Below are positions 3,395 to 53,400 of a DNA stretch of 64,000 bases, piece after piece. Both the position numbers and the translations under genes were made by a program. The notes beneath the pieces were generated by a model. That model was not told where the DNA came from. It worked only from the letters and a program-made list of their open reading frames with translations, and made no database searches. Within the stretch, counting starts at the first letter, position 1. Each line of letters begins with the position of its first letter. Origin of the DNA: an uncultured archaeon (GTDB lineage Archaea; Thermoplasmatota; Penumbrarchaeia; JASLWR01); contig CAYFHS010000010.1 of assembly GCA_964342815.1 (NCBI GenBank), forward strand, positions 58,379 through 122,378. Direction: 5' to 3'.

Positions 3395-6300
3395 TTATTC
3401 TGCAAGGTATCCCTGTGCGCTACAGTTAGTACATGTTATTGTTGTGGGCCGCTCGGTTGTCTCGACCTGGTTCATGGAACCGCAGGCATGGCATTGAACG
3501 CCGGGCAGTTCGGTTTTTTCCTCTACGGGAGACTCAGCAGGCATTTCGGATTCTGTAGTTCCCTCTGTCGGCAGGGAGGAAAATATATCCTCAAGGGGGC
3601 CAGGAACGCTTTCCTCCGTTTCCGGTGCCGGTGATATGGGTCCGTCCACGGCGGGCTGGTCCTGTGTGTTATCCATTCCGGCTTCATTTACCAAGCCGCT
3701 TTCGGCATCGACCTGATCAATTGGGGCCGCTTCCACGCCGGTAGCAGGAGGAAGCGCCTTAAGATCGAGGTTCGGAGTGCCCAGTCCGGAGGTAGACACC
3801 GGAAGAGAATATTCAGGGGAATTTTCAGATGTTTCCTCCTGTTGAGCTCCCATTTCCGGTGCGATCAATGAAAGGTCCAGGGGAGGTAGTGTCAGGTCCA
3901 TGAGCGGCTGTAGTTCCATGGGACTTTCCGTGCTCATGGGGAGTGCGGGTCGATGAGGATCCGGGACGGTACCTGCCGTAGGTGGAAGCTGTACCTGTGG
4001 ATAATTATTAACAGGCGCCCCTCCCGTCCCTCCTCCCCAACCACCACCGGTTCCATAGGACGGAGAATATCCGGGTTGAGATTGCAGCGAAGCGTACATC
4101 TCGGAATACTGCGGATAGTGAAAGTCCCTGGAACCCATTGGGTACGGATCAGGAGAGTAACGCTGCTGAGGGGTATATTCCACATTATCCACCTCTTCTT
4201 CATTTTTCCCCTTTTTCACAGTTATTACGATTATCCCAATTATCATCAGCACTACGAGAACGCCTACAATGAGCAGGATCCACCAGTAACTCGACAGAAA
4301 ATCGTCTTCCACAGCTGTCGCACCCTGATGTTTTGCAAGTTCACTGCGATAGAGATCTTTCTGTGGATCGGTGGCGTCGTTGGGGTTACCCAGGTTCAGG
4401 CCCTTGAGTTCCTCCCACCAGTCCGGGAGCCCGTCGCCGTCGCTGTCCGTTTTATCCTCCCACCGCTTCGTCACTTCGTTTCCTGTGGGTTGGGGGATAA
4501 CCTCGATTGTCAGCTTTATGCTCTCGTTGAAGCCGAGGCCGTCATTCACATACAGGTAAACCAGATATTTGCCAGTTTTGTCAAGTGTGGTATTGGCATC
4601 TGGCCCCCAGGCTTTGAAAACGATCTTTTTGCTGGTCTTCCCCTTTAACTCCCAGTAGTAGCTGAGCTCGTCCCCCTCGTTATCCTCCGTCCCTATAGCG
4701 CTGAGGGTGACTGTGGCGCCATCTTCGAATTTCTGATCGTCGTAAGGTAAGGCAATTACCGGGGAGGGAGCCGAATTGACCCAGATACGGACAACTTCGG
4801 ACACGGCGTATCCGTTCCCAACAGCATCTTTCGCACGCCACATGATATAATTGTCCCGCCCTGGTTCGAACCCAATGTCCATCAGAACTACGAGGATCTC
4901 ATTTACCATGTTGTTGTTCGCATTTGTCCAGTTGACAAAATATTTCGAGTCGTTACCAAATGCAGAGATAGAATATTCCACAGTCTTTCCATCCACACCG
5001 CTTCCGCCTGCATCGCTGATTGTCAGGCCGACGGAAACCATGGTATCTATGGATACAATATCATTGGCAGGAAGCGGATCTGAGAAGGTCACCGGGGTGA
5101 GGTCCACCTTGATGGTAAGCCTATCGCTCTCAACGGGGCCGTTTCCGGATATATCGTTTACGCGCCATAATACAGCGTTCCGGTCACCCTCCGCGAGACC
5201 CAGCTGAACCCATGCCCTGACCTTCACGGGATTATCATCGATACCTTCCTCCAATATCTCGAATTCCATTTCGTCGGACGTCCATCCCGAGAATGTTCCC
5301 TCGCCGCTCTTCCGGTACGAATATTCTATGGTATTGGTGTCCAGACCGAAACCTTCAGCATCGGCAAAGGTGGCCTCCACAAGGATGTCGGTGCGCCTGA
5401 ACCATTCACCGTCCGTCGGAACAAATCCGGAGATAACAGGGGCGATGCTGTCTATGTTGAACCGGAAATGAGTGGTGTTGCCCCATTGGTCGTAAATGTC
5501 ACAGGGAGTTATATGAAAATACCACGTCCCCTCGCTGAGCCCGGCAAACTCGCCGGGATAGGTTCCCGTAAGATCGTTGTTCTGGTTGTAAAGCACTTTA
5601 GGTGGTTCTGTGACAGGCGTGCTGTCCACGGTATACGTATATCCCTTTATACCGGTCACTTCGTACGGCGGTTCCCAGGAGAAGACCGGGAGGGTGCTGT
5701 TATAATACACCATGGGATCCGGATGAGTTGGAGAGGTCACTTCGATATCGAAAGGTCCCTTGAGATCGAAATAGATAGTATCGTTATAATCCTCCGAGAC
5801 GATCCCCGCGTTATCCCGAAACCGAATAATTATCTTCTTCAACCCGTCGAGAGGGGTGAGGGCGAAACGTTTCTCTGTGGCGAATTCCTCCCAGGGACCT
5901 TCGTTCCCCCGATCACCTATGATCTGCATATCCGCAACGCCCGAAGCGTTGTCGAAGGCATGGATGGCCAGGTCGACCAGTTTATCGTTTACCGAGGAAA
6001 TGCCTTCATGTATGGTTATATTGCCCACGGGGCGGGTCACATCGATCTTGAAACTTTTTTTGTAGGAGTAATTGCTGGCGACATTATAGTTGTCCTTTGT
6101 TCGCGCCCTCCAGAAGTATACGCCATCCACCAATGAATCCGATATGGTATGTTCCGTAAAGGAGGAATTCACCCATGAGGAATTGTATATTTGATTGCTC
6201 AACTGTTCATCGTTGTAAATCTCCACCAAGTATTCTGATTGGTAATCGCCCTTATCCGGATCAGTGAAGTTCCACTCCAGTTTCGGGGTCTGGGTTCCCT

Positions 6301-7567: not shown

Positions 7568-7583
7568 ATGCTACCACCTTGTT

Positions 7584-7708: not shown

Positions 7709-7847
7709 TTTTTTAGATTTCTAAAATTCACTATTATTTACACGACATCAAAGCAAATAAATCAAGAACCTCATGTCAGCGACAAAACATTCTTGGGGCT
7801 GTCCCTAAATAGAATCGATCCTTATGTCAAGAGACAAAAAGGGTAAT

Positions 7848-10800
7848 TTAAACGGCGAATCCCTGCACGCCACAGGAAGAACAGATCACAACCGCCGGTC
7901 GTACGTTCGTGGTCACCTGATTCACGGCCCCGCAGGCGTGACAGGGGATGCTCTGGGGCGATGGAGTTGGCGGAATCTCCGGTGCTGGGGGAGACTGGGT
8001 GGGAAGGGGCGGTTCAGCAGGGGGCAGGGGTAGCTCACCGCTTTGACGTTGACCGAATATATCATTCAGCAGGTCGTCCGCGCTTTTTGCGGTGGAAATC
8101 AACGGTTGCGGTGAACGGGGAACCACTTGCGGTACAGCTGGAGATGAAGACGGAACCGATGGCGGAATTTCCGGCACGGGAGCCACCGGTTGTGGATCCG
8201 CCATGGTACCAGGAAGAGCATCGAACGACAGCGGTTCCTGCGCAGGCATGGCCGTACTCGGATCGAAGGCACCAACAGTACCGGTCTCATCCTCCGGGGC
8301 CGGAGGCAGGGCCATGCGATTGAGATTCATAGTACCACGCTCGGTTGAGAATTCAGGCAGGGAATAATTGGGTATGCCAGGTGAGAGGGGTGCCGCTCCG
8401 ATTTGTGCCACCCGGGGTGCTGGCAGGGCCGGGGGATTGTAAGTTGAACCAGTGGGTGATAATTGGTTGGCAGCTAAAGGTAATTGTTGCCCTCCTCCTG
8501 CATATGGGGCTTGGTAAGATGGCATCTGTCCACTGGTAGTTGGAGCATAACCCCCACCGGATTGCGGAAAGTTCCCCTGGCCATATCCGGTCGCACCCCC
8601 ATACGGGGTCCCGGAAACCGCTTGGGCCTGGTATCCAGTGGCCGTATTCGAATGCGGTGGTTGGTAGTATGCCCCAACGCTAGGCGGATACGAACCTTGT
8701 GAGGCCCGCAGCCTGGGCAGCTCACCCTTCTGCTCTCTTTCCTTTTTCCTTTTCTTTCTCACAGCTATGATGATTATCATGATGATCAATATTATCACAA
8801 CGGCCGCGCCGATCACAAGTAGCCACCAGTAATCCGATAGCAAACTTTTCTCGGGGCCGCTCTTCACTTGATGTTCTCTGAGTTCCGCATCGTATTTTTC
8901 TTTCGATTCCGTTGTGGCGTCGTTTGGGTTGTCGGGGTCCAAGCCGTTCAACTTCTCCCACCAGTCGGGAAGTTCGTCGCCATCGCTGTCAGTTGTATCG
9001 TCCCACCTCTCCTCCACTTCGCTTTCGGTGGGTTTCGGGGTCACTTCGATAGTCAGTTTCACACTCTCGTTGAAACCGTAACCGTCATTCACATAAAGAT
9101 AGAGTAGATATTTACCCACCTGAGCCAGTGTCGTCTGGGTGCCGATACCGTAACCCTTAAAATGAATTTTTTTAGTGGTCTTCCCCTTTATCTCCCAGTA
9201 ATAGTTCAGTTCGTCCCCCTCGTTATCCTCTGTTCCCGTGGCATTCAAGTGAATGATGCTGCCTTCCTCGAATGTCTCTCCATCATACGGCCGATCTATA
9301 ACGGGGACGGGGGCCGAGTTCACCCATACCCGGAAAGCCTCGGATTCGGCGAAACCATTCCCTACTGCATCCTTCGCCCGCCATTTTACATAATTATCGC
9401 GGCCCGGTTCGAACTGGATGTCCATGAGCAAGTCCATGGTTTCCTTCACCAGGTTGTAATTGATATTGGTCCAGTTTATAAAATATTTCTCGTCATCACC
9501 ATATTTGGATGTGGAATACTCGATGGTCTTTCCATCAACACCGCTGCCTCCGGAATCGTCGATGTTAATACCAATGGACACGGAGGTTTCGCTGGAAACC
9601 TCGTCGAAGGCGGGAAGTGGATCGGAAAAGGTCACCGGGCTGAGGTCCACCTTGATCTGCAGTTTTTCACTTAACGTCGGGCCGTTTCCGGACATGTCGG
9701 TAATACGCCACATGACGGCATTTTCAGCTCCCTCGTTCAACTCAATACTGGCCCAAGCTCGGACCTTCAATGGATTTTTCTCTGTACTTCTCTCCAATAC
9801 CTCGAATTCTATCCCGTCGTCCGTCCACGCTGTAAAAGAGTTCTCACCGCTCTTTCTGTAAGTGTAGGCCAAACTTTCCTCATCCAGACCGAAACCCTCA
9901 GGGTCCAGAAATGTAACTTGGGATAATATCTCCGTAGTTCCATGCCAATCCCCACTTGACGTGACAATCTGAGAAACAACAGGGGGGACACTGTCGATGT
10001 TGAATTGGAAATGGGTAGTATTCCCCCATTGATCGTAAACATCACAGGGCGTAATGTGGAAATACCAGATTCCCTCGCTCAGCCCCGCGAACTCGCCCGG
10101 GCTTGTTTCTACAAGATCGCTGTTTTGCGAATAGAGGACCTTGGTCGGTTCACTGAGAGGCGTACTGTCCACTGTATATGAATATCCCTTTATTCCCGTT
10201 ACTTCGTACGGAGGGTCCCATGAAAAGACGGGTAGTGTGCTGTTATAATACATCTGATCGTCCGGGTGTGTGGAAGAGCTGACCTCAATATCAAAGGGTC
10301 CCGTGAGATCGAAATAAACAGTATCGTTGAACTCATCTGAAACGATGCCTGCGTGGTCCCTGAATCTTACTCTTATCTTTTTGATACCATCCTTGGGTGT
10401 CAGGGAGACTCTCTTCCCGCTCTTGAACTCTTCCCAGGGCCCGACATTCCCCCGGTCGCCTGTGATCTGCATGTCGGCGATTCCGCTGCCGTTGTCGGAG
10501 GCTTTAATGGCAATATCAACCAGCTGCTCGTTCACAGAAAGAGCTCCGTCCTCAATGGTGATATTACCTATCGGTTTCGTAACGTCGATCAATATTTTCT
10601 TGAGAATGGAGAAGTTACTGGGTGCATGATAGATATCCTTTGTCCTAACCCGCCAGTAATACGTCCCGTCCTCCAACTCCTTAACGAGAACATGCTTCGG
10701 CTCCGTAGAATTCAGCCAAGTAGTGTTATAGACCATTGTGTTCATTTCTAGCTCCGAATAGATCTCCAAGAGATAATCTGACTGGTGATCGCCTTTATCG

Positions 10801-12203: not shown

Positions 12204-15200
12204 TTATTGTGCGAGATATATCTGGGTGCCGCAGGAAACACAGGTCACGGTGGTGGGTCGTACGGCAGTCATAACCTGATTCATGGAGCCGCAGCCATGA
12301 CATTGTATACTGGGCAATTGCGGAATACCCGGGATAGGAGGAGGAGAAACCATATCCGGTACCGGAGGTTCGGGAGAAGATAAACCTGGGGGCGGCGACG
12401 AAAAGATATTGTCCAGTGGACTCGAACCGCCTTCCACCGGTACCGCCGGAGCGGGCGTAGGGGGCGCTTCCGGGGAGGGTGTTGAATTGATTCCCGGTAA
12501 AGGCGGTATGTAGATAGGCTGCACCGCACCTGATTGCTCGAATGCGCCAGGCAAACCTTTTCCACTTGTTCCGTCGCCTGCAATTGGGATTTGCCCCCCT
12601 GGGGATGTTTCCTCGGGAGGTGCAGGGGGAAGGGCCATGAGATTGAGGTTTTGAGTCCCCTGTTCGGAGGTGAACGCTGGCAGGCTGTATGCTGGCGGGG
12701 TGAAAGACGGTGAAGCTGACTGAGCTTCGGTTCCCTGTGCAGTGGTTATAGGGCTCTGAGGTGGAATGGCCATGTCCTGCACGGGCTGTATTTCCGCCGG
12801 TCCCGTGTACATTGGAAGAGCGGGTCTTTCAGGTACAGGGCTAGCACCTGCTGCAGGTGGCAGTTGTGCCATGGGATACTTCATATAATTTGGCTGACTT
12901 CTTTCCTGTCCGCTTCCCCACCCACCACTGCTTCCATAAGCGGGAGAGTACGCGGACTGAGATTGGTGGGAAGCATACATCTCGGAATACTGCGGATTAT
13001 GGAAATCCCTGGAACCAATTGGATACGGCTCGGGAGAATAGCGCTGCTGTAAGGCGTTTTCCATCTCTTTTTCTTCTTCTTCCTTCCTCTTCTTTTTCGC
13101 CACAATGACTATTATTCCAACGATCAAAGCCACTATGATAAAGCCCACTATAAGAAGAACCCACCAGTACCTCGACAGGAGGTTTTCCTCCCCGACTTCC
13201 GCACCCATATGTTCTGACAGTTCAACTCGATAAAGATCCTTTTGTTCATCAGAACCGTCGTTGGGATTGTCCGGATTCAGCCCATTGAGTTTCTCCCACC
13301 AGTCCGGGAGCCCGTCGCCATCGCTGTCAGTTGTATCCTCCCATCGTTTTATAATATCGATACCGGTGGGCTTCGGAGTAACCTCAATGGTAAGTTTTAA
13401 GCTCTCGTTGAAGCCGAGTCCGTCATCCACATGAAGGTACACCGAATACTTACCCTGCTGATCCAGTGCTGTGCTTGCATCGGGCCCCCAGCCTCTGAAA
13501 ACGATCTTTTTACTGGTCTTGCCCTTTATCTCCCAGTAATAACTCAGTTCGTCCCCCTCGTTGTCCTCCGTCCCGGAGGCATTCAGGCGGACAGCGGCGC
13601 CTTCTTCGAATTTCTCGTCGTCGTATGGTAGGGCGATGACCGGCGTCGGGGCAGAATTGACCCAGACCCTGACTGCATCGGACACGGCGAAATCGTTCCC
13701 CACCGCATCCTTCGCACGCCACTTTATATAGTTGTTCCGACCGGGTACGAACTCTATATCCTGCAGGATCACCAGGGTCTCCTTTACCATATTGTTGTTG
13801 GGATTTGTCCAGTTTATAAAATATTTCTCGTCGTCCCCATATGCGGAAATCGAATATTCCACAGTCTTTCCATCCACACCGCTTCCACCAGTATCGCTGA
13901 TGGTCAGACCTGCTGAAACCAGGGTATTCTTGGATACCTCGTCATGGGCCGGAAGCGGGTCGGAGAAGGTCACTGGGGTAAGGTCCACTTTGATCGCATG
14001 CCGTTCGCTTTCGATGGGTCCGTTCCCTGAAATATCGTTTATACGCCACATCACGGCATTCCTGTCCCCTTCTACTAGATCGAGCTCAACCCATGCCGTG
14101 ACCTTCACAGGATTGTCATCGATACCTTCTTCCAGTACATCGAATTCTATTCCATCACCGGTCCATCCAGAGAATGTTCCCTCGCCGCTTTTCCGGTATG
14201 AATAGGCAATACTTTCAGTATCCAGACCGTAACCGTCTGCGTCGGTGAAGGTGGCCTCGACGCGGATTTCGGTGCGTCTGTACCATTCGCCGTCCAATGG
14301 AGAAATCTCGGAGATCGCCGGAGCTACGCTGTCTATGTTGAATCTGAAATGGGTGGTATTACCCCATTGATCGTAAATGTCGCAGGGAGTGATGTGGAAA
14401 TACCATTTTCCCTCGCTCAGTCCCGCGAACTCCCCAGGATAGGTTCCCGTAAGATCGCTGTTCTGGTTGTAAAGCACTTTGGTGGGTTCGGTGAGAGGGG
14501 TACTGTCCACCGTATAGGAATATCCTTTTATGGCGGTCACTTCATAGGGTGGGTTCCATGAGAAGACAGGAAGCGTGCTGTTGTAATACACCAGCTGGTT
14601 AGGGTGAGTAGGAGAGGTCACATCGATATCGAAGGGTCCTTTGAGATCGAAGTATATGGTATCGTTGTAAAGCTCGGAAACGATACCTGCGTTGTCCCGG
14701 AACCTCACGCTGATCTTTTTCAGGCCGTCGAGAGGGGTGAGAGCGATACGTTTTTCGGTCTTATATTCCTCCCACGGCCCTTCGTTCCCCCGGTCCCCAA
14801 TGATCTGCATATCTGCTACGCCCGATGCGTTGTCCGAGGCATAAATGGCAATGTTGACCAGTTTATCGTTAACAGAGAGGATATCCTCCTCTATGGTGAT
14901 GTTGCCGACGGGTTTCGTCACATCGATCTTGAAACTCTTAATGACCGAGTAATTGCTGGCGACGTGATAGACGTCCTTGGTTCGAGCCCTCCAATAATAT
15001 ATGCCATCCTCCAGCGCTTCGGTGATGGTGTGCTCTGTAAAAGTTGAATTCACCCATGACGAATTGTAAACCTGATTGGTCAGTTCCTCATCGTCGAATA
15101 TCTCAACCTGGTATTCGGACTAGTGGTCGTTCTTATCAGGGTCTGTGAAATTCCATTTAAGCTTCGGTGTTCGAGTGCCCTGCCAGACCTCGGATGTTGG

Positions 15201-16660: not shown

Positions 16661-19600
16661 TCAAGGAGCTGGAGGTTTTGGGGGCGGTTGCGGAGAGGTT
16701 TTGGGGGTTTTCGGACCGAAAATATCGTCGAGAACATCGTCCTCGGTGCTCATGGGGGGAGCAGCATGGGATTCCATTGATTCAGGAGGCGAAACAGCAG
16801 GGGCGACCGATCCGGATTGGGCTTCCGACCATTTTGTTGAGGGTGAGGGGGGAGATATTACTGGGGATCCGGAAACGGTTACTGGATCGGGTGTAATATG
16901 TGAGGCTGATGGAGGTGCTATCACGGTGGGTTTGGGCATGCTTGTGGGCTCACGTGTTCTGGGTGATGGTGTTGGAGGTTCTATCACCGTGGATTTTGAC
17001 ATGCTTGTGGGCTCAGGTGTTCTGGGTGATGGTGTTGGAGGAGATATAATGGGGGTTTCAGAGACTAGTCTTGGATCAGGTGTTATCGGTGATGAAGGTG
17101 CTATTACCGTGGGTTTGGACATACTTATGGGCTCGGGTTTTATGGGTGTTGGTGTTGGGGGAGATATATTGGGGTATTTAGAGACTGGTATTGGGTCAAG
17201 CGTTATGGGTGATGGTGTTAGGGGAGATATAATGGGGTTTTCAGAGACTGGTGTGGGATCCGATGTAATTTGTGAGGCTGATGGAGGTGCTATTATTGTG
17301 GGTTTGGACACGTTGATGGGCTCCGGTTCAACCGGCGATGCTGTTGTGGGTGATATTGCAGTGGTCTCCGGGACCATAGTAATTGGTATGAGTGATTCCA
17401 CAGTCTCCGAAGGGTAGGTTGGCTCCTCGAAGGTTTTTTTCATCTCCTCATCCCCCGCTGCAGGGGGAAGTGCCAATCGATTTAGGTTTATGGTACCTTG
17501 CTCCGATGTGAAAGAAGGTAAAGAATATTGGGGCGGGGTCGGCGAGCTGATCACTTGTTCATACTGTTGTCCCTGCTGAGCGGGCTGGATTGAAGGAGTC
17601 ACGGGAGAAATTACATTAGAAGGTTGTTGTACGGGAAAGATCTGTTGCTGCGCTACAGGGACCTGTGAAGCCATGGGAAGGGCAAGAGGCATATGTCCGG
17701 GCCCCGTAGAACCGGCAGACGGCAGCTGAGGATAAGTATCCGGACGGCCCCCGAATTGCGTGTTCGCCCCTTTTGAGGATCCCCAGCTCGAGAATTGTGT
17801 TCCATAAGCCGGATGTGACTGGTAAGTGTTTGTCATCTGCGAATATTGGGGTGGGTAAAAATCCCTGCTTCCAACCGGGTACGGTCTCTCCGGAGCTATT
17901 CGATTTGGCATGGCGTTTTCCGTTTCTTCTTCCTTCTTCCGCTTATTTTTTGCCACAACAACGATACCGATGATCACTATTAAAATTAGTGCACCGATGA
18001 TAATCAGAACCCACCAGTATTTTGAGAGCAGACCTTCCTCCGTGATTTTAGCGCCTTTTTGTTCATCCAATTCCCTTTTGTAGGTTTGTTTCATCTCCTG
18101 GGTCGCGTCATGGGAATCATTTGGATCAAGGCCGTTCATTTTCTCCCACCAGTCCGGCAGCGAGTCCTCGTCGGTGTCAGTAGTATCCTCCCATCTCACT
18201 TCAGCTTCTTTTCCGGTAGGTTTCGGTTCGATCTCAATATCCAGCTTCACGCTTTCATTGAAACCATAACCGTCGTCCACGTGTAAATAGACCAGGTATT
18301 TACCCGGTTGATCCAATGTTGCCTGTGTCTCCTTCTGGTATCCTCTGAATACGATCTTCTTGCTTGTTTTTCCCTTTATCACCCAGTAGTAACCAAGCTC
18401 GTCTTCCTCGTTGTCATTGGTCCCTTCGGCACTCAGGCGAATTGAAGAACCTTCCACGAAGATCTCTTCATCATATGGCGCGTCGATCACAGGCTCCGGG
18501 GGTGAGTTGATCCATACCTGGCTCGCTTCGGACACTGAATAACCATTTCCCACTGCATCCCTTGCCCGCCATTTAATATAGTTATCACGACCCGGTTGAA
18601 ACTCAATATCCACCAATATGTTCAAACTCTCTTTGATCATGTTGTTGCTCATACCCGTCCAGTTGACAAAGTTTTCATCGTCGTTACCCCAGGCGGATAT
18701 GGAATACTCTACGGTCTTTCCGTCCACACCGCTGCCGCCCATATCGGTGATCGTGATACCTGCGGACACTGTAGTTTCCGTGGATATCTCATCATCCGGG
18801 ATCGGATCGGAAAAGGTTACCGCGGTTAGGTCCACCTTGACCGCCCGCTTTTCGCTGTTCACCGGTCCGTTGCCGGACATATCGGAAACACGCCATATCA
18901 CAGCATTCCGGTCACCTTCATTGAACACGATATCGGTCCATGCCCTGACCTTGACGGGATAACCTTCTTCCCCGTCCTCCAGTATTTCAAAATCCATCCC
19001 GTCGCTGTTCCAACCCGAAAATGTTCCCTCCCCGCTCTTTCTGAAAGAGTAGGCAATACTGTTGGTATCGAGCCCGTAGCCGTTTCTGTCGTAAAATGTT
19101 GCTTCAGTTCTTACACTGGTGGTCCCGAACCAGACATTCACAGATGGAACAAGCTCGGAAACCACGGGAAGGACGCTGTCGATGTTGAATTGAAAATGGG
19201 TGGTATTACCCCATTGATCGTACACGTCACAGGGTGTGATATGGAAATACCAGGTTCCCTCCCCGAGTCCGGCAAATTCACCTGCATATGTTCCGGTAAG
19301 GTCCCCGTTAGGGGAATAAAGCACTTTTGTAGGCTCCGTAAGAGGAGTGCTGTCCACAGTGTACGAATATCCCTTGATACCCGTAACCACATACGGAGGC
19401 TCCCAGGAGAATACCGGGAGCGTGCTGTTGTAATAGACCAGGGATTCGGGGTGGGTGGAAGATGAAATTATAACATCGTATGGTCCCTTGAGATCGAAAT
19501 AGACCGTATCATTGAAATCTTTCGAGATTATACCGGCATGGTCCCGGAACCTGACACTGATTTTTTTCAGTCCGTCAGTGGGAGAAAGAACTATTTTTTT

Positions 19601-27000: not shown

Positions 27001-28558
27001 TCCGGAGGTCACCTGCACTATAACACCCCAGCATCCCAATGGACTGAGCAGGTACTACGTAACGATGCCCGAGATCATGTTCACTTCAGAAGAGAACGTC
27101 AGTATAAATTACAGTTGGGACAATGTGGAGTTTCACGAATACGACGGGAATATTATCATACCGCTTTCGGAGGGTTTGGTGGAGATCACCTACTACGGTG
27201 TGGACCCTGCAGGGAATGTTGGAGACACAATGTCCAGTATCCTAATGATTGACATAACACCCCCTACTACAACTGTCTTTTTGGACCCTGAAGAACCCAA
27301 TGGGAACGGAAATTGGTACTCCTCACTGGACATAGAATTGATCTCGCCCATGAAGGATACGACGGCCACATATTATTATTTCGAGAACTTCACCGAGAGC
27401 GAGATTTACTCCGGTACTATCTCCGCTGAATTGATCCCGGAGGGTATTCACACACTTGTATACTTCTCCCAGGATAGGTCGGGAAACAGAGAAAAGGAAA
27501 AAAAGCTGCTTATTAAATATGATTCCAAAAAGCCGAAACCATATCTGGAGATCTCCACGGAAAAGGCCAAGATAGATGATACAGTTAGTATACAGGTAGG
27601 TAGGTCCAAGGATGATTGCGGTGGAGACCTGTTATACCTCGTGGATTTTGGTGATGGAGAAAAGACCCGATGGACGATGAAAAAAGAATTGACGCATTCG
27701 TATTCGGAGGCCGGTAGATATACCATCAAGCTACGTGTACGGGATGAAGCAGGGCACGAGGCATCAAGCGAAGAGATTATAGAGATCGATGAATACTCGT
27801 TTTTTGAGACTATGAACAATTACCGTGTTGAAAAACCCACCGCGTTCTACGGAATCGTGGCTGCGCTCATGGTGGTCATTGCAGGATTGATCGTGGTTAT
27901 GATCCTGGTGAGAAAACGAAAAAAAGTACGAGAAGAAGTCAGGGATCTCTCACCGGATGAGCACGTGGAAGAAAAAGCTGAACCGGACCCGTCGTCAGCT
28001 TTACGGACCCCGGGTATTGCGGAAAAAGATACTTTTCGAAATAATGTATCCCATGAACTAGAGCACCCCATAGAATATATCGGTCCTGAATCAACTGAAC
28101 GAGGCGGGTGGCAGAACGAAAGGGCATGGGATTTCGGGGTGGGAGAAAAAAATGCGGATTATTATCCGAACAGCGTCAAAGAAACAGAAATGATTGATGA
28201 TGGAAGTGATGACGACCTGCTTTCTCTTCCCGAGAACACACGCAATGATCTCAATACCGGTACCAAACCGAATGATGGTCAATCCGGGGACAGGAAGAAG
28301 CGATCTATGGATGATATCTTCGATTTCCGCAATCCCATGAAATTCTCGAAATCGGATCAATCCGAAGTGCTTGTGCGAGATAAGGAAGATGGGAAGGAAG
28401 ATGAGAAAGAAGACTCACCTGTAAAGTCACCGCTGGACAAGCAAGGTGTGTCAGTAGGTGAACCCTTAGCCGAAAAGGACCGCGAACCTCATTCCGGGAA
28501 GTCTGCAGAATCCGCAAATGATCTTAACGAAATGAAACTGGATCACTGGGACATATAA
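24053..28558 (+). CDS. Membrane-anchored peptidase family C25 (gingipain-like): propeptide, catalytic domain, Ig-like repeats, PKD, TM, acidic tail
   Basis: Motifs YIIITT..F...L..LAAWKTKKG, YVLLAGD, DQYYACLD, catalytic FIDHGG and GMACMT, AIAYIGSSR, NMLGEP. Repeated PPxT..YYS.D.AGN.E units, DFGDG PKD motif, TM plus RKRKK. Confidence 0.9.
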   Translation: MNRFVMNLLFAVFVIFLFNPFSSTSTNAETRQEARVGLIASINSKTKGILQENIDMDFPPPIFGEEEYAGEIYDTIQMEDTLAMPLPGHPRVPVKIITIENMHLMESIEVEYSGIDYFPLNLVPSPKPRSPYASESCEYIDKSAYASNIFLPSEDYKITLLGGVWKDGYRYWSYSLALFPVRFNPSINRAMTYDSVRVEVKFDGDSEIGTQSYISKARESDQAASVIPGSTSKGTRSTRSGDGPDPDYIIITTSGFANPLEKLAAWKTKKGIPCEIQTTDSIYSSYEGSDNPEKIKNFIKDMHDQYGITYVLLAGDYTNVPVRLCKDPSPYEGWDDGWIPADQYYACLDRTWNADGDAYWGENGDIKDILADVYLSRIAISSYTRMSDWAQSVIDYEKSPPGGNWMEKLVLIGADSHRTGDAATQCDYLYDKYLNTAFQETDKLYENGGTIQKSDLTDSLNSGAGYVNFIDHGGPTVWCQNGGNQVLLNNNDVASLTNGRKKPLVSGMACMTSWFDNPSGCGYQNFGDCIGETFTENAQNRAIAYIGSSRSATAAIGYNSYTYGAGGLQEDLCYQLGLDNLHIGSAHTEAKDHYAYSFGNWFPDTEESEGEIQSCWLELNMLGEPEVPLWTKVPKTFQVNVTVTQQRINVSVKDTGTGSGIQGAQVCIQGSGQYMRGKTSSGGFIGFNNPMVEGSADVTVTKPNYYTYGTIIPFIDVVPPITECIISPDEPDGLNGWYNETPTISLASEEWAVIRYSLDENGDDFETYSKPIRVPNGEITFRYCSEDNWGNKEVPRTSIIRVDSNTPVTDIEVNPEDPTGSGGWYNSVANVTLTVGEEDIETFYRILQDGEPVAPFGVYSIPLSLKLEGEISIQYYSIDDAGNIEEMQVEELRIDRTPPEVSIDVDRAPDGAGNWYSELPSIMLSSTDEEDVIYYYFDDSRHKQYTRSFEPDEGIHVLHFYSLDTAGNTAEEKTYEFKVDTIPPEVTCTITPQHPNGLSRYYVTMPEIMFTSEENVSINYSWDNVEFHEYDGNIIIPLSEGLVEITYYGVDPAGNVGDTMSSILMIDITPPTTTVFLDPEEPNGNGNWYSSLDIELISPMKDTTATYYYFENFTESEIYSGTISAELIPEGIHTLVYFSQDRSGNREKEKKLLIKYDSKKPKPYLEISTEKAKIDDTVSIQVGRSKDDCGGDLLYLVDFGDGEKTRWTMKKELTHSYSEAGRYTIKLRVRDEAGHEASSEEIIEIDEYSFFETMNNYRVEKPTAFYGIVAALMVVIAGLIVVMILVRKRKKVREEVRDLSPDEHVEEKAEPDPSSALRTPGIAEKDTFRNNVSHELEHPIEYIGPESTERGGWQNERAWDFGVGEKNADYYPNSVKETEMIDDGSDDDLLSLPENTRNDLNTGTKPNDGQSGDRKKRSMDDIFDFRNPMKFSKSDQSEVLVRDKEDGKEDEKEDSPVKSPLDKQGVSVGEPLAEKDREPHSGKSAESANDLNEMKLDHWDI

Positions 28559-40492: not shown

Positions 40493-40767
40493 CTTTGCCT
40501 CCTCCCGATAGTTACTTCACAGGTATTATTTCTACATTGCGATACGCTTACTGCAAGAAAAAAATACTACAAACTTCATTGAAAAAACCGAAAAAAGGTA
40601 TTATCTACTTATATAATAAGGACAATGTATCAAAAGATTCAGCAGAATCGCTTCCTGTGGCTCACGATTCAGCGAACATTATCAAGCTACAAATATCGAG
40701 TAGCCCAAAGGGCTCATCGAGATTTGCACCGTTGACAATATTCGATCCTTCTATCATGGTGAAAAAG

Positions 40768-43700: not shown

Positions 43701-43788
43701 CGGGTGCGGAAGAACTCTGGAAAAACCTGATAATCCATTTCTGACCTCGACACGCTGTCCATCGTGTTACACCGAGAACCCGTTTTGA
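40768..43788 (+). CDS. Large soluble alpha-helical repeat / coiled-coil protein with C-terminal Zn ribbon (~1006 aa)
   Basis: Likely start ATG 40768, preceded by GGTGA; the track's 40495 start adds intergenic-like sequence. Repeats such as GQDISFLEREVELAMGYVERDNWSMA; ends CSGC..PF....CPSC. No signal peptide or TM. Confidence 0.85.
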   Translation: MAKFNLERRKICQQNLEIIADLIEACAGVNRDVTAERLMLVEAQDLLKKQEYSEVETRINKMNGVLQHKTKITIIRESVTALTTFRSYCEIAIKLGVLDEANRNELESLVGERSLVFSLEDWKDLHTRCNEGISSVRTVLENEYSRRFKEILDAVRIGADLEMDMMDVDILLELAQGELDRGEMLTCYDFLSQAMAVNKNVLQIFIKYASELRAAQDKLDEFKGYDSKMDISQLEQLVTLSQETAKRGDYAGALDVATSLTNHIQKLKLSTNARERMMNLRLRILDLKDICPDHFDKRKIFSDLDEAITRAKIEYNSEEYPRAIDVLDSIKEEMEKVDRYVRREYCISLLNRCKNLMKDADPKVGMDSAKAVRIQEIMDYASELFNAERYGEASMKAEQCYEKIRSILKHDGKNSYDKRRERIGELLGGLRLHKLDTPELTDMYERFKKYGDEGEFTKCGPLINEIEEKIHVRYRNFINKKLENIKEIVEMSPSLGDEVDDITSGLIIVQENFDNRNYERSLEILDKVAEKVEIRKAEVSTIRDGLNKRLNKAGETLAEMTRRGEDVEGLFKAMDKIERLIASGDLVNARRVGDKLEAAIYGIIDNLFLNIDVLKGEIEELGVEGPGLFDNLVAGKRALAKEQFFIAYTIAMDIKAAIKELEKKLSEIPVGGDKARDDIPEEPPEPVDDIEEIPKEEALVPLGSMFGEGTVSSSEELLDISKETAVLKAGKYKSGAEAEIPEKPDIVERAARAKDLLDLLTERGQDISFLEREVELAMGYVERDNWSMADKHLQRCIEKAETLVNESEGALSIGDVQSNINDLYTEIKQYELQGIILKEVREELDRADSFSHSGDAGNANTSFAESKKKLDTRVALYQKLVEQISHIQAKLSELVRDNVEVGIVHSLFDNIKNLTRKGEYEKALDVCEQCSDELKRRESYGKGSSEELAPVEMPFGPVFGPSMFGDLPETAEPGMTCSGCGRTLEKPDNPFLTSTRCPSCYTENPF

Positions 43789-46800: not shown

Positions 46801-49800
46801 CATCTGCAATTCGAATGAAAATTATGGCATTTATTTCCATGATTCCGATAATAATAATCTATATTATAACATATGTAATTTGAACAACAGATCAGGCATA
46901 TACCTCTATGATTATAGTAATAAGAATAACATTGAAAACAACACATGTAACTTAAATCACGATGGGATCGATCTGCTCAAATCCTCGACTAATTATATCG
47001 CGTACAACACGTTAGACACCAATACCCATTATGGTATAAACATCCGGACCACGTCTTCTAATAACCTTATCTACCATAATACATTTCTTTACAATAATCA
47101 GGGTAATATCCAGGCCAACGATAACGGTACCAATAACAGGTACTCTACCTTCGGCGAGGGGAATTTCTGGATTGACTACCGCCTCAGGTATCCGGCGGCC
47201 ATCAATAACGGAAATGTATGGAATACTCCATATGAGCTTGATGGAACCCAACTTAGTCGGGATGGATATCCCTTGCTATTTATTAGGACGGATCGTGAAT
47301 TCCCTCGATTGATAGACGAGAATAGCCAAAAGAACGGTACTACTGGCGATACTATGGAGATTAATATAACCTGTGCTGATAATTTTGGTATTTATTCCGC
47401 ATATGTTAACTGGACTCACGGCGCATTGGGTGGTAATGTTTCTTTAAATCGGATCGGTGGTTTTTGGAAAGGAATTTTTTACATCGATCATGCTTTGGAA
47501 AATCTGAGTTATGTTATCTATGTCAAAGATATTGGAAATAATACCTTAAAAAGCTCAATGCAAACCGTTCCTGTATTTGACAACGACAAGCCGTTTATAG
47601 AATTGGATAATAGTCCGAATATTGGGTTTACCGGGGATGCTTTTCATTTCAACATTAGTGCTTCTGATAATATTGAAGTTGGTTCTATGTTTATCAATTG
47701 GAGCTATTCAAATCGAGCTGGAAACCTGTCTCTCATAAGGAACGATGACTTCTGGCATGGAATTATTATGTTTGATCACAATCTCTCAAATCTGGCCTAT
47801 ACTATTTATGTCTTTGACCATTCCAATAATTTCATTTTTAGTTCCGAACAAGTTGTTCCTGTTTTGGACAATGATCCACCTACATTATTGAAAGACAATA
47901 CCCCATTAACTCCAACCACCGGAGATGAGTTCCCCTTCTCCTGCAATTTTACTGACAACATCAATCTCTCATCCGTAAATGTCATTTATACTTTTGATTT
48001 CCAAAGCTATTTCAACTTGAGTATGGGAAATATTGAGGATGAGAAATGGTTTTTATCTATAAATATAGAACCCTGGGCGTCCCGTTTGGCATATCAATTC
48101 TATTTAGTGGACAATGTTTCAAATCATAATTTTACGGATGTTCGAACATTGATCATTCATGACAATGATCCCCCGAACTTACTAATAGAACACACCTCAA
48201 ACGAGACTACAACCGGTGACAATTTCACCTTCTCGGTTTTGCTGGAGGATAATATTGGTATTGAGTCTGCCGTAGTTAATTATACTTTCGATGGATCGAA
48301 TCGTTTTTCTAGCCCCTTGAATCTGACCGAAACCGGGTTCTGGAAGAATACAATTGTTATACCTTCGAATTCAACAAAGTTGGAGTACTATTTCCTTTTC
48401 GAAGATACCGCGAGTAATGTGAATTGGTCATCAGTTACAAAGCTTATTGTACTGGACAACGATGCTCCCATTGCCGATGCAGGAGATGACATGAGTATAA
48501 GATTTGGGGATGAAGTAGTTTTGAATGGGTCTGATAGTTCCGATAACATAGGTGTGGTCAACTATACCTGGTCTTTTGTATACAAGGGTAATCACGTTCG
48601 TCTCCATGGACAGATCCAATATTTCGTTTTCGATAGACTCGGAAACTTTTCGATATCACTGATAGTCGCCGATGATTATGGGAATTGGGCAAAAGATACA
48701 TTGAACATTCTTGTGATCGTATGGAATACTAGCGACGACGACACAGAGGACGACGACACAGAGGACGACGACACAGATGATGACGACACAGATGATGACG
48801 ACATAGAAGATGACACTGATGATGATACCGACGACGATACCGATGATACTGACGATGACGATACCTCCAATCAGGATTCTGATTCAAGCTCTCAGCTACC
48901 CGTTTGGATAGTCATACCTCTTATTCTGTTGGCGATCATAGTAGTCGTGTTTATCATCTTAGTGGTTGTCAGGAAGAAACCCAAGGAAAAGACATCATCT
49001 CTTGAGGACACGGTCCCTGCGGAAGATACAACGATTATAGAGGAAACTCCTATTGTGGATACCTCTCCTGAAATCACAACCACCGCTCTACCACCATCGC
49101 CTCCTGACGAAGATGATGCGGATAAACAAAGCCCCCCTGTGCCTTCTCCCATCTGTACTTCTTGTGGTAATCCTTCTGATTATTATCCGGATAACGATTG
49201 CTTCTGGTGTGGATCTTGCCAATCGTATGTTCTTCCCGAAATCCGGGACGAACAAGTATCTCAACCTGCACCGCCTGCACCCCCGGGAGACACCCCGTTT
49301 CCACCCCCTCCCATAGAATCGTCACCTCTACCTCCCCCGCCCTCACATGAGTTCCCGCCGGCTGACATTGATGATCTTGATCATGAACGTAAGGGAGAAA
49401 CCGTCCTCGAAGAATACAACGCAACAAAGGAAATGCTCGAAAAGGCCCCCTCATTCATAGACGTGACCGAATCACTGGAGATCCTCGAACGCTCAAGGAA
49501 TGAGATCGAAAATAGAAAATTCGATAAGGCTTCGAACTCTATCCGGGAAAGCAAGAACATGGCTAATGGGATCAGGGAGAGATACGGTGCACTAGTAGAT
49601 CGATCCACTCTGATATTGAAGGAACTGAAGGAATTACAGGAACAAGGTAATGATATGACGTCTGTCATCGATCTTCTTACAAGGGGCAAGGGTGCATTGA
49701 ACACTGGTGATTTTTCTCTCTGTGGAGAACATCTCAACGACGCATCAAGGATAATGGATGAAATAAGGGAAAAGGGTATTGGAGAGTCAGAGGATGGGGG

Positions 49801-50128
49801 ATCTACTACTACCTCTGTTCCTGATAAGAAATTGGTGATATCCGATAGCGAGGAAGACAAGAACGATCGCATAGATAATGAGTCGATACTGCCGGATGTA
49901 AATGTCGCAGAGGAAATAGTAAATGATCCAGTTGCTGAAGATCAGGATGAAAAGAAATCCGAAGGGGAAGGGGTGAATGAAATGGTAGCGGAATCACCTG
50001 CTCAAGATCAAAACGACGAGAGGACCAGGGACGATGGTGATGCTACAAAATCTGATCCGGAAACAAAAAAAGAACCTTCATCCGACATTGATGATATTTT
50101 GGGAGATCTCGACACACTTTTCGACTGA
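43886..50128 (+). CDS. Giant single-pass surface protein (2080 aa): NosD/CASH parallel beta-helix repeats, Ig-like repeats, PKD, Asp/Thr linker, TM, cytoplasmic Pro-rich, Zn-finger, helical and acidic tail
   Basis: Signal peptide; TIQAAVNAANPGDVIKI; many GI.L..S.NN.I.NN.C repeats; duplicated HWN.H.ID..N.VNG.P..YWKN block; DNDAPIADAG PKD; TM plus RKK; CTSC..CGSC. Confidence 0.92.
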   Translation: MITCKRWVIILIGLMVVGNVLAVIEVPFLNRLSPLFETSAAVIEVDFQGNKDHRTIQAAVNAANPGDVIKIWSGGYRESVIINKTLTLISAGNVPTIIDGQNRGYAVKITSNWVNISGFTIKTAHWLGYGIIVDHAEQCKINDTFFENNINAVWINSSNNNTICNNTASKQPFGNSAKGIYLTEAKDNIIINNTFSIGYPLILLNSSNNALKDNLFSSATGGIQLESSHSNTISNNIINSTKYSVRVDSSNDNKFINNTCNSNVRYESYEGIILLNSKNCTLRLNNLTESDVTIEGDAVEHWNTHNIDTSNNVNGNPLHYWKNKDSGTIPLGAGQVILANCTNVIVENQNISNASKAIQLGYSNGNLIRNITSNSNYLNMISLNNSDNNTICDSNFNSIQKYPVYIENSENNSIYNNTCKVAALGIQLWYFSNYNKIYNNTLSSNIVNSYGIYLVSNSNNNSIYSNNCSSMRDGLQIDHSSGNDIFNNSLTSNSESGIFLSSSWRNCRGDDNIIRNNYCKSNKYGILVVSKGKNEKNNSIYNNTCILNQRGIYIFTTSGPNYIKKNNCSSNDYGIYLNDAGNNTIFNNTCNSNNNYGIYMSLSSNDNIVENNNCILNKVHGITLKTSSKNKLFNNTCTSNQKYGISVEDNSNNNTITNNTCNSNNRGGIYLGNLHLNKIDNNTCNSNIFTGIELDASTYNDILRNTLNFNGYGMYFSRAHRNYLFNNTCVSNAATGIHLYRSERNVLVNNTCVSNRNSGIFLSNADWNTFFNNTCNLHSSSGIAASSADYNIFIGNILENNDRAGIDISSSISNTLSNNIMNNNGISISGSSSIRWDSHSIDNTNIVNGKPVYYWKNKNGGKVPAGAGQIIIVKSNGVVVDNQNLSNSSYGVLLAYSNGITVSNTTTNGNYVGIKLYWSQINIIENNICLSNMYSGISLEYSDSSILYNNTCNLNNFGIIMDETEYSNLSKNICNSNENYGIYFHDSDNNNLYYNICNLNNRSGIYLYDYSNKNNIENNTCNLNHDGIDLLKSSTNYIAYNTLDTNTHYGINIRTTSSNNLIYHNTFLYNNQGNIQANDNGTNNRYSTFGEGNFWIDYRLRYPAAINNGNVWNTPYELDGTQLSRDGYPLLFIRTDREFPRLIDENSQKNGTTGDTMEINITCADNFGIYSAYVNWTHGALGGNVSLNRIGGFWKGIFYIDHALENLSYVIYVKDIGNNTLKSSMQTVPVFDNDKPFIELDNSPNIGFTGDAFHFNISASDNIEVGSMFINWSYSNRAGNLSLIRNDDFWHGIIMFDHNLSNLAYTIYVFDHSNNFIFSSEQVVPVLDNDPPTLLKDNTPLTPTTGDEFPFSCNFTDNINLSSVNVIYTFDFQSYFNLSMGNIEDEKWFLSINIEPWASRLAYQFYLVDNVSNHNFTDVRTLIIHDNDPPNLLIEHTSNETTTGDNFTFSVLLEDNIGIESAVVNYTFDGSNRFSSPLNLTETGFWKNTIVIPSNSTKLEYYFLFEDTASNVNWSSVTKLIVLDNDAPIADAGDDMSIRFGDEVVLNGSDSSDNIGVVNYTWSFVYKGNHVRLHGQIQYFVFDRLGNFSISLIVADDYGNWAKDTLNILVIVWNTSDDDTEDDDTEDDDTDDDDTDDDDIEDDTDDDTDDDTDDTDDDDTSNQDSDSSSQLPVWIVIPLILLAIIVVVFIILVVVRKKPKEKTSSLEDTVPAEDTTIIEETPIVDTSPEITTTALPPSPPDEDDADKQSPPVPSPICTSCGNPSDYYPDNDCFWCGSCQSYVLPEIRDEQVSQPAPPAPPGDTPFPPPPIESSPLPPPPSHEFPPADIDDLDHERKGETVLEEYNATKEMLEKAPSFIDVTESLEILERSRNEIENRKFDKASNSIRESKNMANGIRERYGALVDRSTLILKELKELQEQGNDMTSVIDLLTRGKGALNTGDFSLCGEHLNDASRIMDEIREKGIGESEDGGSTTTSVPDKKLVISDSEEDKNDRIDNESILPDVNVAEEIVNDPVAEDQDEKKSEGEGVNEMVAESPAQDQNDERTRDDGDATKSDPETKKEPSSDIDDILGDLDTLFD
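48734..48865 (+). repeat. Asp/Thr low-complexity repeat (44 aa, DDDTE/DDTD units) just before the TM helix
   Basis: gacgacgacacagag and gatgatgacacagat units are visible directly. Confidence 0.95.
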
Positions 50129-50136
50129 ATGAAAAA

Positions 50137-50379: not shown

Positions 50380-50441
50380 GGGATTCCCCCGATTCCACCG
50401 CTGATAAATAAAACTTTTTCTCTGGAGATTCTCTGGGAAAT

Positions 50442-53400
50442 TCAACTTACCTCCACCGCGGCCCCGCAGCTGTCGCATACGGTGACGAATGGGCGCTCCT
50501 TGCTGGTAACATTGATAGGTGCCCTGCAGATGTGGCAGAGAACCGTTTCCTTTGGTGTAATTATCACGGGTTTGGGTGACTCAGGTTTGATAACCGGTAT
50601 ACTATCGTCCGATTCATATTTCTCGATGACGGCCAATTTGTCTTCCACGACATCGTCCAGTCCCCTTTTGAAAATATCGTCCAGCGTACCGCCATAGGCC
50701 GGCCCCACACCCGCCGGCTCCAGCTCACCCGTGTTCTCCTGACCCCCTTCACCGTAATAACCGGACGCCGAAGGAGCGGCGAAGGGAGAAGGCGGTGCTA
50801 CGGGGGGTGCGCCGCCAACTGAGTAGGGCGTGGGTGCGTATGGAAAACCGTAACCGGCCTTACCGGTTTCCGGCCCCAGTGCGTAATCGGGCTGAGCAGG
50901 TTGAAAGGCACCCGGGGTAGGTGCTCCAGGCATTGAATACGGCGAATAGGAGGGATAGGGTAAGAATCCAGGCTGCTCTGGTTCGCTTGGCGATACACGT
51001 CCGGCGGCAGCTGCATCGGAAGGCGCAGGTGGAAGGGCCAGCGGTGCCTGGGATACAGTTGTCTGGAAAGGATTGTAGAAAGCGGGAGGAGTGTATGTCT
51101 GATAAGGCTGCGGACCGGGCGGAAGGGCTCTCTGTGCCATTGGCATGCTCCCGCCGCCAACGCTGCTTGGAGGCAAAGCCGGGTAAGCACCTTGGCCATA
51201 GGCATAGGAGCTGTACTGCGGCATGTAGGTGGTAATAATGTTCTGAAGGGCCGCGAGCTGCTGCTGAAGTTGTTGAGCGTAGGGATCGGTATAACCTCCA
51301 TAAGGTGCAGGGGCCCCGTATCCCATGGTTTCCTCCTCGAACTCGTCTCCGTCATATGAGGACATCTTGTAGAATATGAAAAATCCAATGCCGCCTATGA
51401 ACATCACTACAAAAACGGCAATTACAACCCACACCCAGGTGTCGATACCCCCACTACCCGTGTCTGTTTGCCGAACCTTAGGAGTAAGTTTCTGGGTCTG
51501 TGAACCATTGCCCCCCACCGCACCTGTGACCGTATCGAAGGGCCTGGAATGAAGATCCTCGCCGTTCACCTGAAGCTGAAGATTGGCTACGGACTCAACC
51601 GTCCAGACATACGAGAGTACCTTTTCAGCATTTACCCCCAATTCGCTGATCTTCCATTTTTTTATTATCTCAGAACTCTGCATCTCATCTTCGTTCGGTT
51701 TGATCTTGTTATTGTAGAGGATCACTTCCACGTTCGTTGCAATTCCGGTCCCACTGTTCTTGACCTGTACCGTAATATCCACATCTTCCTCGATGTAAAG
51801 CTTCCCGTCCCCTATGGGTAATATCCATGCATCGATCTTTGGGAATTTCACCTCTTCCACGAAGATAGTGACTGTCTTCTTTACTGTATTGGTGCCGTCG
51901 CTGGCCGTAACCGTGATGGTATGCTCCCCCAGGCTGAGGCCCGCCTTATGGTACACCTTTTCCCCTGTCTGCAGGTCTCCGTCCCGATCGGATTTCCAGA
52001 AAAAGCTCAATTTCGGGCCGTCTTTTGGGTCAACATCAGTTGTATTGCTGGCATCCAGAAGCAGTTCGGTGGCGGTGTCTATTACCAGTCCCTCACGGGG
52101 ATGGCTTATTGTCACTTCCGGCGGTGTGTTCTGGATCTCCACAGAATAGATGCCCACGACGCCATCAATGATCCCATCGTTGGGCGTTACCCTTGCTTCC
52201 CACCTCTGCCCAGCCTCCAGCTTGCTTTTCGGGATGACGTATTTACCCGAGAATTCCTTCTTTATCTTGTCGTCCAGATACCATTCTATCGTTTCCTTTA
52301 CATTATCTCCGTCGGGATCCTTGGACTTTTCAGTAATCTCCAGCTCCAGGTTCTGGGTTATGGTTGGCTCACTGGGTGTGATGGACAGTACGGGTTCCAG
52401 GGGTTGGTAGTTGACCACGGTGAACCTGTGCTCTACGGTCCTGGACCTTCCGCTGAAACCGTCATCAGCATATATCTCCAGGAAATAAACATTTTCGCTC
52501 TTTCCATTCGAATATTGGGCGGAGTATTTCAGTGGTTGGTTATTCAGATAATATAATGCCTGGCTGGTGCTAACCGATGCTATATCACTCCCGTGATAGG
52601 TGGTCCCGATGGTCAAGTGATATGTGATATCGTCATCTTCCTCATCACTGGAGGGATACCAGGAGATGTCCGGTGTAAGAGAATGGGTCTCGACGGGCTG
52701 TATCTGGCCGGGCTCTGTTGGATCGCTGTTCTCCGTCACTTTCAGCGTTATGGTTGAGTCCTCCGTTTCGGGGGACCATAATCCCTTGCTGTCCTTTACC
52801 CGAAAAATTATCTCGTGCGAGCCCGTTGATAGATCGGATATCTTGAAGTTCTTTTCCTCCGATATGACATGGTCGATGGAAGATTTCCACTCGTACTGTA
52901 CTATGGAATCTCCATCCACCGGGTCCTCGCCCTTTCCCTTGAACTCAACCTCGACACCCTGCCTTGCAGGATTCGGGCGTACCGTAAGAATCTCTCCAAC
53001 AGGATACGAGTTAGTGTAGAATTTCCAATCCGAGTAGGGACCCCAGCCGTCCTCATCATGGGATTTTACGGCCCAGTAATAGGTTTTTCCCATTACAAGG
53101 GGAATGTCGAGCGAGGTTCCTGCGACAGCGCCGTTATATATATTTGCCTGTGCCTGGTCACTGTAAACCGGCCCTTCAGTTGACACTTTGACCCAGCTTT
53201 GGTCTATTTCCTTGTGATCACCCCTGTATATTGCCTGTTGCGCCCAAAGCAAGCTGACCGTATCACCCACCAATCCCTTGGCATTATTGGCAGGGGTTGG
53301 GTTCACTGGTGCACCCGGTGGATGGACCGAACGGCTTTCATTCGGTGAAGGACTGCTGAAAACCAAGGCAGCTAGTCCGTATGAGGATAGGAACAGGAAA

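Follow-up and report, generated by a model that had tools for sequence, protein, structure and literature searches.

Paxillin-family LD motifs (LDxLLxxL) bind helical bundles, the four-helix FAT, PBD and CH2 domains among them, and the bacterial SSB C-terminal tip (DDDIPF) and the FtsZ C-terminal peptide are acidic-hydrophobic segments that follow a disordered linker and recruit several partners. Protein wiring through short linear motifs (SLiMs) is usually discussed for eukaryotes. The stretch of archaeal DNA analysed here, a 64-kb window (C10:58379-122378) of a marine Thermoplasmatota genome (G000; 4.35 Mb on 116 contigs), encodes single-pass surface proteins whose C-terminal tails carry an acidic-hydrophobic motif of the LDDIF type, described by the pattern [LM][DEN][DN]IF. 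A sequence-only reading of the window had interpreted it as a common docking signal in unrelated tails. The present analysis suggests, with a probability of about 55%, that the motif is the conserved acidic-hydrophobic helix island of a homologous tail module, designated module A, and that it forms a two-part docking device together with the zinc ribbon of this module.

Tail module A of the surface proteins

Five of the seven motif carriers in the window, designated P2, P3, P4, P5 and the 1002-aa (amino acid) protein, have one alignable, homologous tail. Module A consists of a membrane helix, a basic Lys/Arg stretch, PYPxG, a 22-residue island 3 (consensus YSLPSF.T[DE]QG.Q.L.R[ML]ALPP) ending in ALPP, the motif, and a C-terminal C4 zinc ribbon, in this order, with variable Pro-rich spacers between the islands. 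The consensus of the motif in 32 aligned tails is L-[DE]-x-[IVL]-F-[GS]. Twenty-two tails of the window genome align across all islands in MAFFT, and dozens of giant type-I surface proteins in this marine Thermoplasmatota family carry the module. The tails had been described as unalignable, which was not borne out, as five of the seven carriers share module A and the NosD-type carrier belongs to a second homologous module, module B. Since five carriers share a homologous module, these occurrences are due to common descent or module shuffling and not to independent gain of a SLiM.

All five module A carriers are coded on the reverse strand. In P2, the membrane helix lies at 4223..4279 according to a hydropathy scan, by which membrane helices were predicted throughout, and the tail at 3398-4222. 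The tail contains island 3 (YSLP...ALPP) at 3746..3811, the motif LEDIF, island 4 of the module, at 3581..3595 (aa 1325), and the ribbon at 3422..3493, which is CxxC-x16-CxxC with the conserved Arg-Pro. P3 has island 3 at 8301..8366, LNDIF at 8055..8069 (aa 1314) and the C-terminal ribbon at 7872..7943, and P4 has them at 12624..12704, 12402..12416 (LDNIF, aa 880) and 12231..12302, respectively. In the 1002-aa protein, a diverged island 3 ending in LALPP (51027..51095) precedes LDDIF at 50670..50684 (aa 923) and a C-terminal ribbon of the same type as in P2 at 50466..50537. P5 carries islands 2-4, with island 3 at 17462..17527 and LDDIF at 16718..16732 (aa 1140); its true stop codon is 19 residues past the motif, and no zinc ribbon is encoded downstream in any frame. 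Motifs were located by translation, in P2 also by the aligned column. P4 and P5 are both split genes. P4 is divided into an N-terminal tip open reading frame (ORF; 15120-16451) and a stalk-plus-tail ORF (12204-15053) with a stop in between, and P5 into a tip ORF (20149-21303) and a stalk-plus-tail ORF (16661-20149) with a one-base overlap at 20149.

The two remaining carriers are coded on the forward strand. A C25 peptidase has MDDIF at 28307..28321 (aa 1419, by translation), and a 2080-aa NosD-type protein ends in a variant of the motif. Translation and coordinate mapping placed all six exact motifs and the NosD variant where the sequence-only reading had located them, each beyond the membrane helix. 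In the seven carriers the motif lies 133-408 residues past the last predicted membrane helix, and a Lys/Arg cluster follows this helix. The tails are considered cytoplasmic because of this cluster and because of the Cys4 zinc ribbons present in them. In the module A tails and in the C25 peptidase the motif is internal, 19-80 residues short of the C-terminus. The eighth single-pass tail visible in the window (21571-23916) does not contain the motif.

In most cases the module A tail has come down together with its gene, and it has been joined to at least one other ectodomain. The ectodomains of P2-P5 and of the proteins C10:53333, C3:86236 and C16:26100 are 45-78% identical (whole-gene paralogs), and the arrays on contigs C26 and C1 form a sister group with about 30% ectodomain identity to them. 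The ectodomain of the 1002-aa protein, with C28:9755 as its nearest relative, is unrelated to those of P2-P5 apart from Ig/PKD-like segments. Since this protein pairs an unrelated ectodomain with a module A tail, the tail behaves as a portable module. The earlier statement that three carriers have non-homologous ectodomains holds, as those of the C25 peptidase, the NosD-type protein and the 1002-aa protein are unrelated to P2-P5.

An AlphaFold2 (AF2) model of module A was computed from the 32-row alignment. The ribbon was predicted with a pLDDT (predicted local distance difference test) of ~95, island 3 as a beta-hairpin with a short helix (pLDDT ~77), and the motif as a helix of one and a half turns (residues 94-98, pLDDT ~63), with Pro/Ser/Thr-rich flanks and spacers of pLDDT 49-65. 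As modelled, the tail fits a disordered chain with a pre-formed or inducible helix. The motif has three of the properties of a SLiM in the ELM sense, namely 3-10 residues with a few fixed positions, a location in a disordered region, where spacers and motif reach a pLDDT of 49-67, and conservation as an island in fast-evolving flanks. Modules A and B are absent from Pfam and NCBIfam. The four Cys of the ribbon and their spacing agree with a generic C4 ribbon; against Pfam (Zn_ribbon_4/MJ0042, TFIIB Zn_Ribbon_TF, LysW, DZR) the best E values were 0.002-0.04 (14-18 bits, below the cut-offs of 27-30), and all NCBIfam matches of tails and ribbons were below the cut-off. A Foldseek search of the module A model against PDB gave nothing at E <= 0.001, and its top rows were the generic ribbons eS27, Tim15, ZitP and LysW.

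The ribbon, with conserved Arg/Leu-Pro between the Cys pairs, ends P2, P3, P4 and the 1002-aa protein, and about 20 more proteins ending in a ribbon of this type are coded on contigs C1, C3, C10, C16, C26, C28, C32 and C33. It was identified also outside surface proteins. In the window genome, a DnaK (C13:99380-101563, L084; Pfam HSP70, E 4e-241) has a C-terminal extension with two Arg-Pro-type ribbons after FDFELMDEEEE, and the ribbon also terminates acidic proteins of about 200 aa and a TPR protein. Elsewhere in the class, other families have it at the end of TPR proteins, after LDDDMF or a similar sequence, and of coiled-coil proteins, after E[DN]xFMVKK or a similar one. The presence of the ribbon on DnaK, acidic, TPR and coiled-coil proteins agrees with a general localisation or hub function. 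The genes around the small ribbon proteins offered no clue to function.

A second tail motif, ALPP, is more widespread than LDDIF. As a 4-mer it occurs in 37 of 317 tails, compared with about 1.5 expected, and the broader ALP[PMQG] occurs in 46. Beyond closing the strongly conserved island 3, it stands ahead of another folded tail domain (LLALPPAR[FY]L ... PIDE[VL]FL[LIM]T) in four further proteins.

Enrichment and conservation of the motif

The frequency of the motif was evaluated in the whole window genome. ORFs were called crudely as the longest non-overlapping ones (n=3,217), and the tail set comprised 317 type-I-looking single-pass proteins whose tails have 30 residues or more (61,693 aa of post-membrane sequence in total). 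These approximately 317 proteins, many of 1,000-3,400 aa, make up about 29% of the coded residues in the crude ORF set of the 4.35-Mb genome. Shuffling of each tail (200 times for the exact pattern) served as the null, with the reversed pattern as a control, and paralogs were collapsed by full-length BLAST into 179 clusters.

The exact pattern was found nine times in the 317 tails, with 0.17 matches expected and at most three in 200 shuffles, and its reverse was not found there at all. After paralog collapse the nine matches represent four clusters, against 0.3 expected (maximum 2). Six of them are in the window and two on contig C26, and one is in a questionable 'tail' of 963 residues, probably a folded region. 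In the 317 ectodomains the pattern was found once, with 3.2 expected. The complete proteome has 24 matches, and several of those outside the tails are LEDIF near the C-terminus of soluble proteins, which are taken here for ABC-type ATPases. Among reduced-alphabet 5-mers with at least three hydrophobic positions, the most enriched class in the tails was hydrophobic-acid-acid-hydrophobic-aromatic, present in 25 tails (4.9 expected; reverse in 6 tails) and in 18 clusters (4.1 expected). The form L-x-x-[ILV]-F-[small] is present in 16 tails and 7 clusters, with 0.6 obtained by shuffling and 0 for the reverse. These shuffle, reversed and cluster counts show that the motif is commoner in tails than their composition predicts, the opposite of what had been named as a ground for rejecting it.

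Conservation was assessed with a module A profile built from the 22 aligned tails of the window genome. Twenty-two tails were added from relatives. The cleaner alignments start at island 3, and the working one comprised 32 tails from four genomes, namely the window genome and three of the same family (G001-G003). The profile gave 39 matches in the window genome and 29-31 in each of the three same-family genomes. Members of the class outside this family match it in the ribbon part alone, with or without the motif. In the alignment, 30 of 32 tails keep L-[DE or small]-x-hydrophobic-[FL] within a single alignment block, located 27-71 (median 35) residues before the first Cys of the ribbon and 43-160 residues after island 3. 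In this place, the proteins orthologous to those of the window and of C26 have LDDIF, LDEIF, LDGIF, IDDLF, LGDIF, LDDVF, MDDIF, LDSVF or LDTVF, so the motif is a conserved island within drifting flanks.

HMMER, run exhaustively against 1.84 billion representative proteins, gave 239 matches at E <= 0.001, 57 of them at E <= 1e-10. With so few matches in a set of this size, module A is rare and restricted to its lineage. One relative is recorded as a Thermoplasmatota metagenome-assembled genome from the Eastern Tropical North Pacific. Among the matches listed, 78 proteins end in the ribbon and have no island 3, and in 14 of these L-x-x-hydrophobic-F-[small] stands 22-86 residues upstream of the ribbon, compared with 0.3 expected by shuffling (at most 3 in 300), the set being not fully independent of the motif because the search profile contains the motif columns. 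Judged by these sequences, the motif and the ribbon travel together well beyond the family. The 32-tail alignment and the orthologs agree in that the motif is kept in orthologous tails, and its loss there had been the second stated ground for rejection.

The NosD and C25 tails and competing explanations

The tail of the NosD-type protein belongs to module B, which consists of a second type of zinc ribbon, a five-helix domain, a long acidic spacer and, at the C-terminus, a helix with the pattern L[DE][DN][IL]L-x-D-x-D-x-[LF]FD-COOH. The module is common to this protein, C8:22692, C26:26989 and the G001 ortholog. On the forward strand of the window, the ribbon (CxxC...C-x-W-C-xx-C) is at 49154..49219, the five-helix domain at 49382..49783 (residues 1-134 of the AF2 model, pLDDT >90, with homologs in the other three proteins), and the LD-like C-terminal helix IDDILGDLDTLFD-COOH, which ends the module, at 50087..50125. 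The variant reads IDDIL..DTLFD-COOH, and its helix was predicted by AF2 with a pLDDT of only 55-60. No significant fold match to the five-helix domain was found in PDB by Foldseek (E <= 0.001), and EzrA-like helices were in the top rows. The second ribbon type (C..C..YYPEY.C[YFH]WC..CQ.YV) occurs in many other tails and is the most over-represented word family in the tails, with CYWC in 11 of them.

The C25 peptidase (Pfam Peptidase_C25, E 1e-55) has a tail at 27911-28555 on the forward strand, with neither island 3 nor a zinc ribbon. In its same-genus ortholog (73% identity) PLGDIFDFRAP corresponds to SMDDIFDFRNP of the window, and the conserved core is thus DIFDFRxP and not the [LM][DEN] part. 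In a family-level ortholog (46% identity) the tail is diverged and nothing of the motif is recognisable. The C25 tail, the NosD tail and the PIDEVFL-type tail domain have no Pfam or NCBIfam match. The C25 peptidase and its orthologs L039 and L040, each from another genome, have the C-terminus Trp-x-Ile-COOH in common (HWDI, NWNI, SWSI; 28547-28555 in the window), and this ending is kept although the rest of the tail diverges. The NosD and C25 occurrences would stand apart as looser representatives of this acidic-hydrophobic type of tail helix, and the C25 tail and about a dozen other tails outside the module may have an independent origin.

A docking role of the motif is likely. It is non-random and conserved, and its low-confidence, Pro/Ser/Thr-rich context fits a docking helix. 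To this extent the proposed common signal is supported. The independence of the carriers is not, since five of seven are homologous in the tail. Bound to its partner, the motif would fold into a helix and bury Leu, Ile/Val and Phe in a groove, and motif and ribbon together would anchor many different surface proteins by their tails to a single cytoplasmic partner or scaffold that all of them share.

Several observations weigh against this interpretation. No cytoplasmic partner or adaptor for the motif was found. The raw count of the pattern owes much to paralogy, and some matches of the class pattern are in folded domains, such as PIDE[VIL]FL in four tails and the 963-aa region behind a doubtful helix. 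A loose paxillin-like 8-mer is barely more frequent than its reverse (21 and 18 clusters). In the C25 peptidase the motif is retained within the genus only. The same-genus ortholog of the 1002-aa protein reads QGYIF, with the acidic residues gone, the subfamily of the C1 array has DLSELDAYL in place of the motif, and a few module members (C10:49030, G003 L069) miss it.

It seems unlikely that the motif is a SLiM which unrelated proteins acquired separately, in tails that cannot be aligned, and which one adaptor reads. The C25 tail, which has the motif and no other island of the module, points in this direction, as does the class pattern in 18 of 284 tails outside the module (5.2 expected), with Pro/Gly-flanked examples on contigs C2, C4, C6, C8 and C24. 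However, several of these 18 leftover matches are inside folded domains, shuffling tests helical segments too leniently, the tails of five of the seven carriers in the window can be aligned, and the NosD-type protein belongs to the second homologous module.

An intramolecular role, in which the motif packs on its own ribbon or on island 3 as a part of the fold or as an autoinhibitory latch, is decidedly unlikely. In its favour, motif and ribbon co-occur at a bounded distance (27-71 residues) in very different proteins, and the beta-hairpin of island 3 at pLDDT ~77 suggests some packing in cis. Against it, the motif helix reaches a pLDDT of ~63 only and the spacers 49-65, the spacer is Pro-rich and varies 2.6-fold in length, and P5 has the motif without a ribbon. 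The AF2 model of module A does not show the motif packed on the ribbon.

A resemblance to the ribosomal stalk suggests another possibility, that the motif mimics the tip of aP1 (L-x-x-L-F-G) and recruits aEF1A, aEF2, aIF5B or ABCE1 to the membrane. The aP1 of the window genome ends in GLGALFG, with the same spacing of Leu, hydrophobic residue, Phe and small residue as in LDDIFG and LDAIFG, and relatives have LSALF, LAGLFG, IAALFGG and LADMFGG ahead of the same ribbon. In Pyrococcus horikoshii, L103, L106 and F107 of aP1 are required for binding of aEF1A and aEF2, and the terminal carboxylate of the tip makes a salt bridge in the solved complex (PMC4267659). The likeness is one of sequence only, an internal motif cannot supply this carboxylate salt bridge, and why the tails of surface proteins should bind elongation factors is not obvious; such mimicry is very improbable. 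The genome also encodes a second EF1A-like GTPase (465 aa) at C3:100641-102038, and the canonical aEF1A (C12:13219-14511) adjoins aEF2 (C12:14622-16844) on contig C12. The gene of aIF5B was located at C57:5487-7238.

Even less is to be expected of the motif as a degron or protease site governing turnover or shedding of the surface proteins. A hydrophobic patch exposed in a disordered tail is typical of degrons, and the genome encodes a membrane-tethered C25 protease and the ribbon-bearing DnaK. Evidence of cleavage is lacking, though, the motif is cytoplasmic and the C25 domain extracellular, and the conserved small residue after Phe and the ribbon distance would be left unexplained. Finally, that the motif is a chance or compositional by-product of low-complexity tails containing D/E/I/L/F, as the definition of the pattern after its instances had been seen and the paralogs inflating its counts might suggest, is refuted by the shuffle, reversed and cluster counts given above and carries almost no weight. 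The motif recurs on a further contig, in three more genomes and in metagenomic proteins from distant sources, none of which was used to define it.

If the docking device of module A is real, a tail code common to these proteins would account for the organisation, positioning or turnover of a very large and variable surface coat in an archaeon with a light wall or none, and it would be a clear case of SLiM-style wiring in archaea. In a further extension, dozens of interchangeable giant surface proteins would be assembled with DnaK, TPR and coiled-coil proteins on one cytoplasmic hub through a two-part code of an LD-like or stalk-tip-like helix and a dedicated ribbon, in the manner of a eukaryotic adhesion plaque. 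Taken furthest, the extension would make the translational GTPases the hub, with the helix copying the stalk tip; the extension, this version included, is speculative and improbable. As module A is small, defined by sequence and absent from Pfam and NCBIfam, it is usable as a profile for tail annotation in metagenomes and for biochemical fishing of its reader.

Three further features were noted. An all-helical protein of about 1,000 aa (window 40495-43788) contains many helical-hairpin repeats resembling the NosD tail domain and ends in the F/G/P-rich MPFGPVFGPSMFGDLPE and, after it, a CxxC...CxxC ribbon that is of another type. A TPR protein is coded at 60210-62744 of the window, and another at C2:119652-121346. 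On contig C1, the tail of the protein at C1:186358-192483 has four tandem 17-residue repeats, each with IVDEVWAEDEEN, an acidic-hydrophobic-Trp unit.

Comparison with known systems

A literature search on archaeal tail motifs and zinc ribbons gave no relevant paper, and none on motif-based wiring of archaeal surface-protein tails.

The SSB tip and the FtsZ peptide differ from the tail motif in their sequence register and in belonging to cytosolic proteins. The FtsZ of the window genome ends in ...LGLDFIR, in a different register, and the peptide was rejected as a look-alike.

ZitP of Caulobacter, which docks on PopZ, is like module A in having a small cytoplasmic C4 ribbon on a single-pass membrane protein, and the ribbon of ZitP serves localisation. 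The fold match to the module A model is not significant (2nb9, TM-score 0.58 on target, E 0.7 in Foldseek). Unlike the ribbon of module A, that of ZitP is N-terminal and belongs to the MJ0042 family, matches to which are below the cut-off here.

The stalk tips (aP1 ...LxxLFG and P1/P2 ...DDDMGFGLFD) share with the tail motif an acidic run, Leu, two residues, a hydrophobic residue, Phe and a small residue (PMC4267659). The stalk tip becomes a helix upon binding and is a hub motif for several partners (PMC4267659). It is located at the extreme C-terminus with a free carboxylate, whereas the tail motif is internal and only the NosD-type tails end in LFD-COOH.

The logic of paxillin LD motifs, to which the tail motif had been likened, would apply in part. 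In paxillin a short acidic amphipathic helix in a disordered region is the docking site, and the same is proposed here for the tails. The DLSELDAYL subfamily and the C-termini of module B (LENILDDL.., IDDILGDL..) match the LD consensus letter for letter, and the LDDIF type agrees with it at positions 1, 2, 4 and 5 only. The loose 8-mer is not clearly enriched over its reverse. In the LDDIF form, Phe is followed by a small residue at the end and the downstream Leu is often missing, there is no homology to the paxillin family, and the context here is that of archaeal membrane-protein tails.

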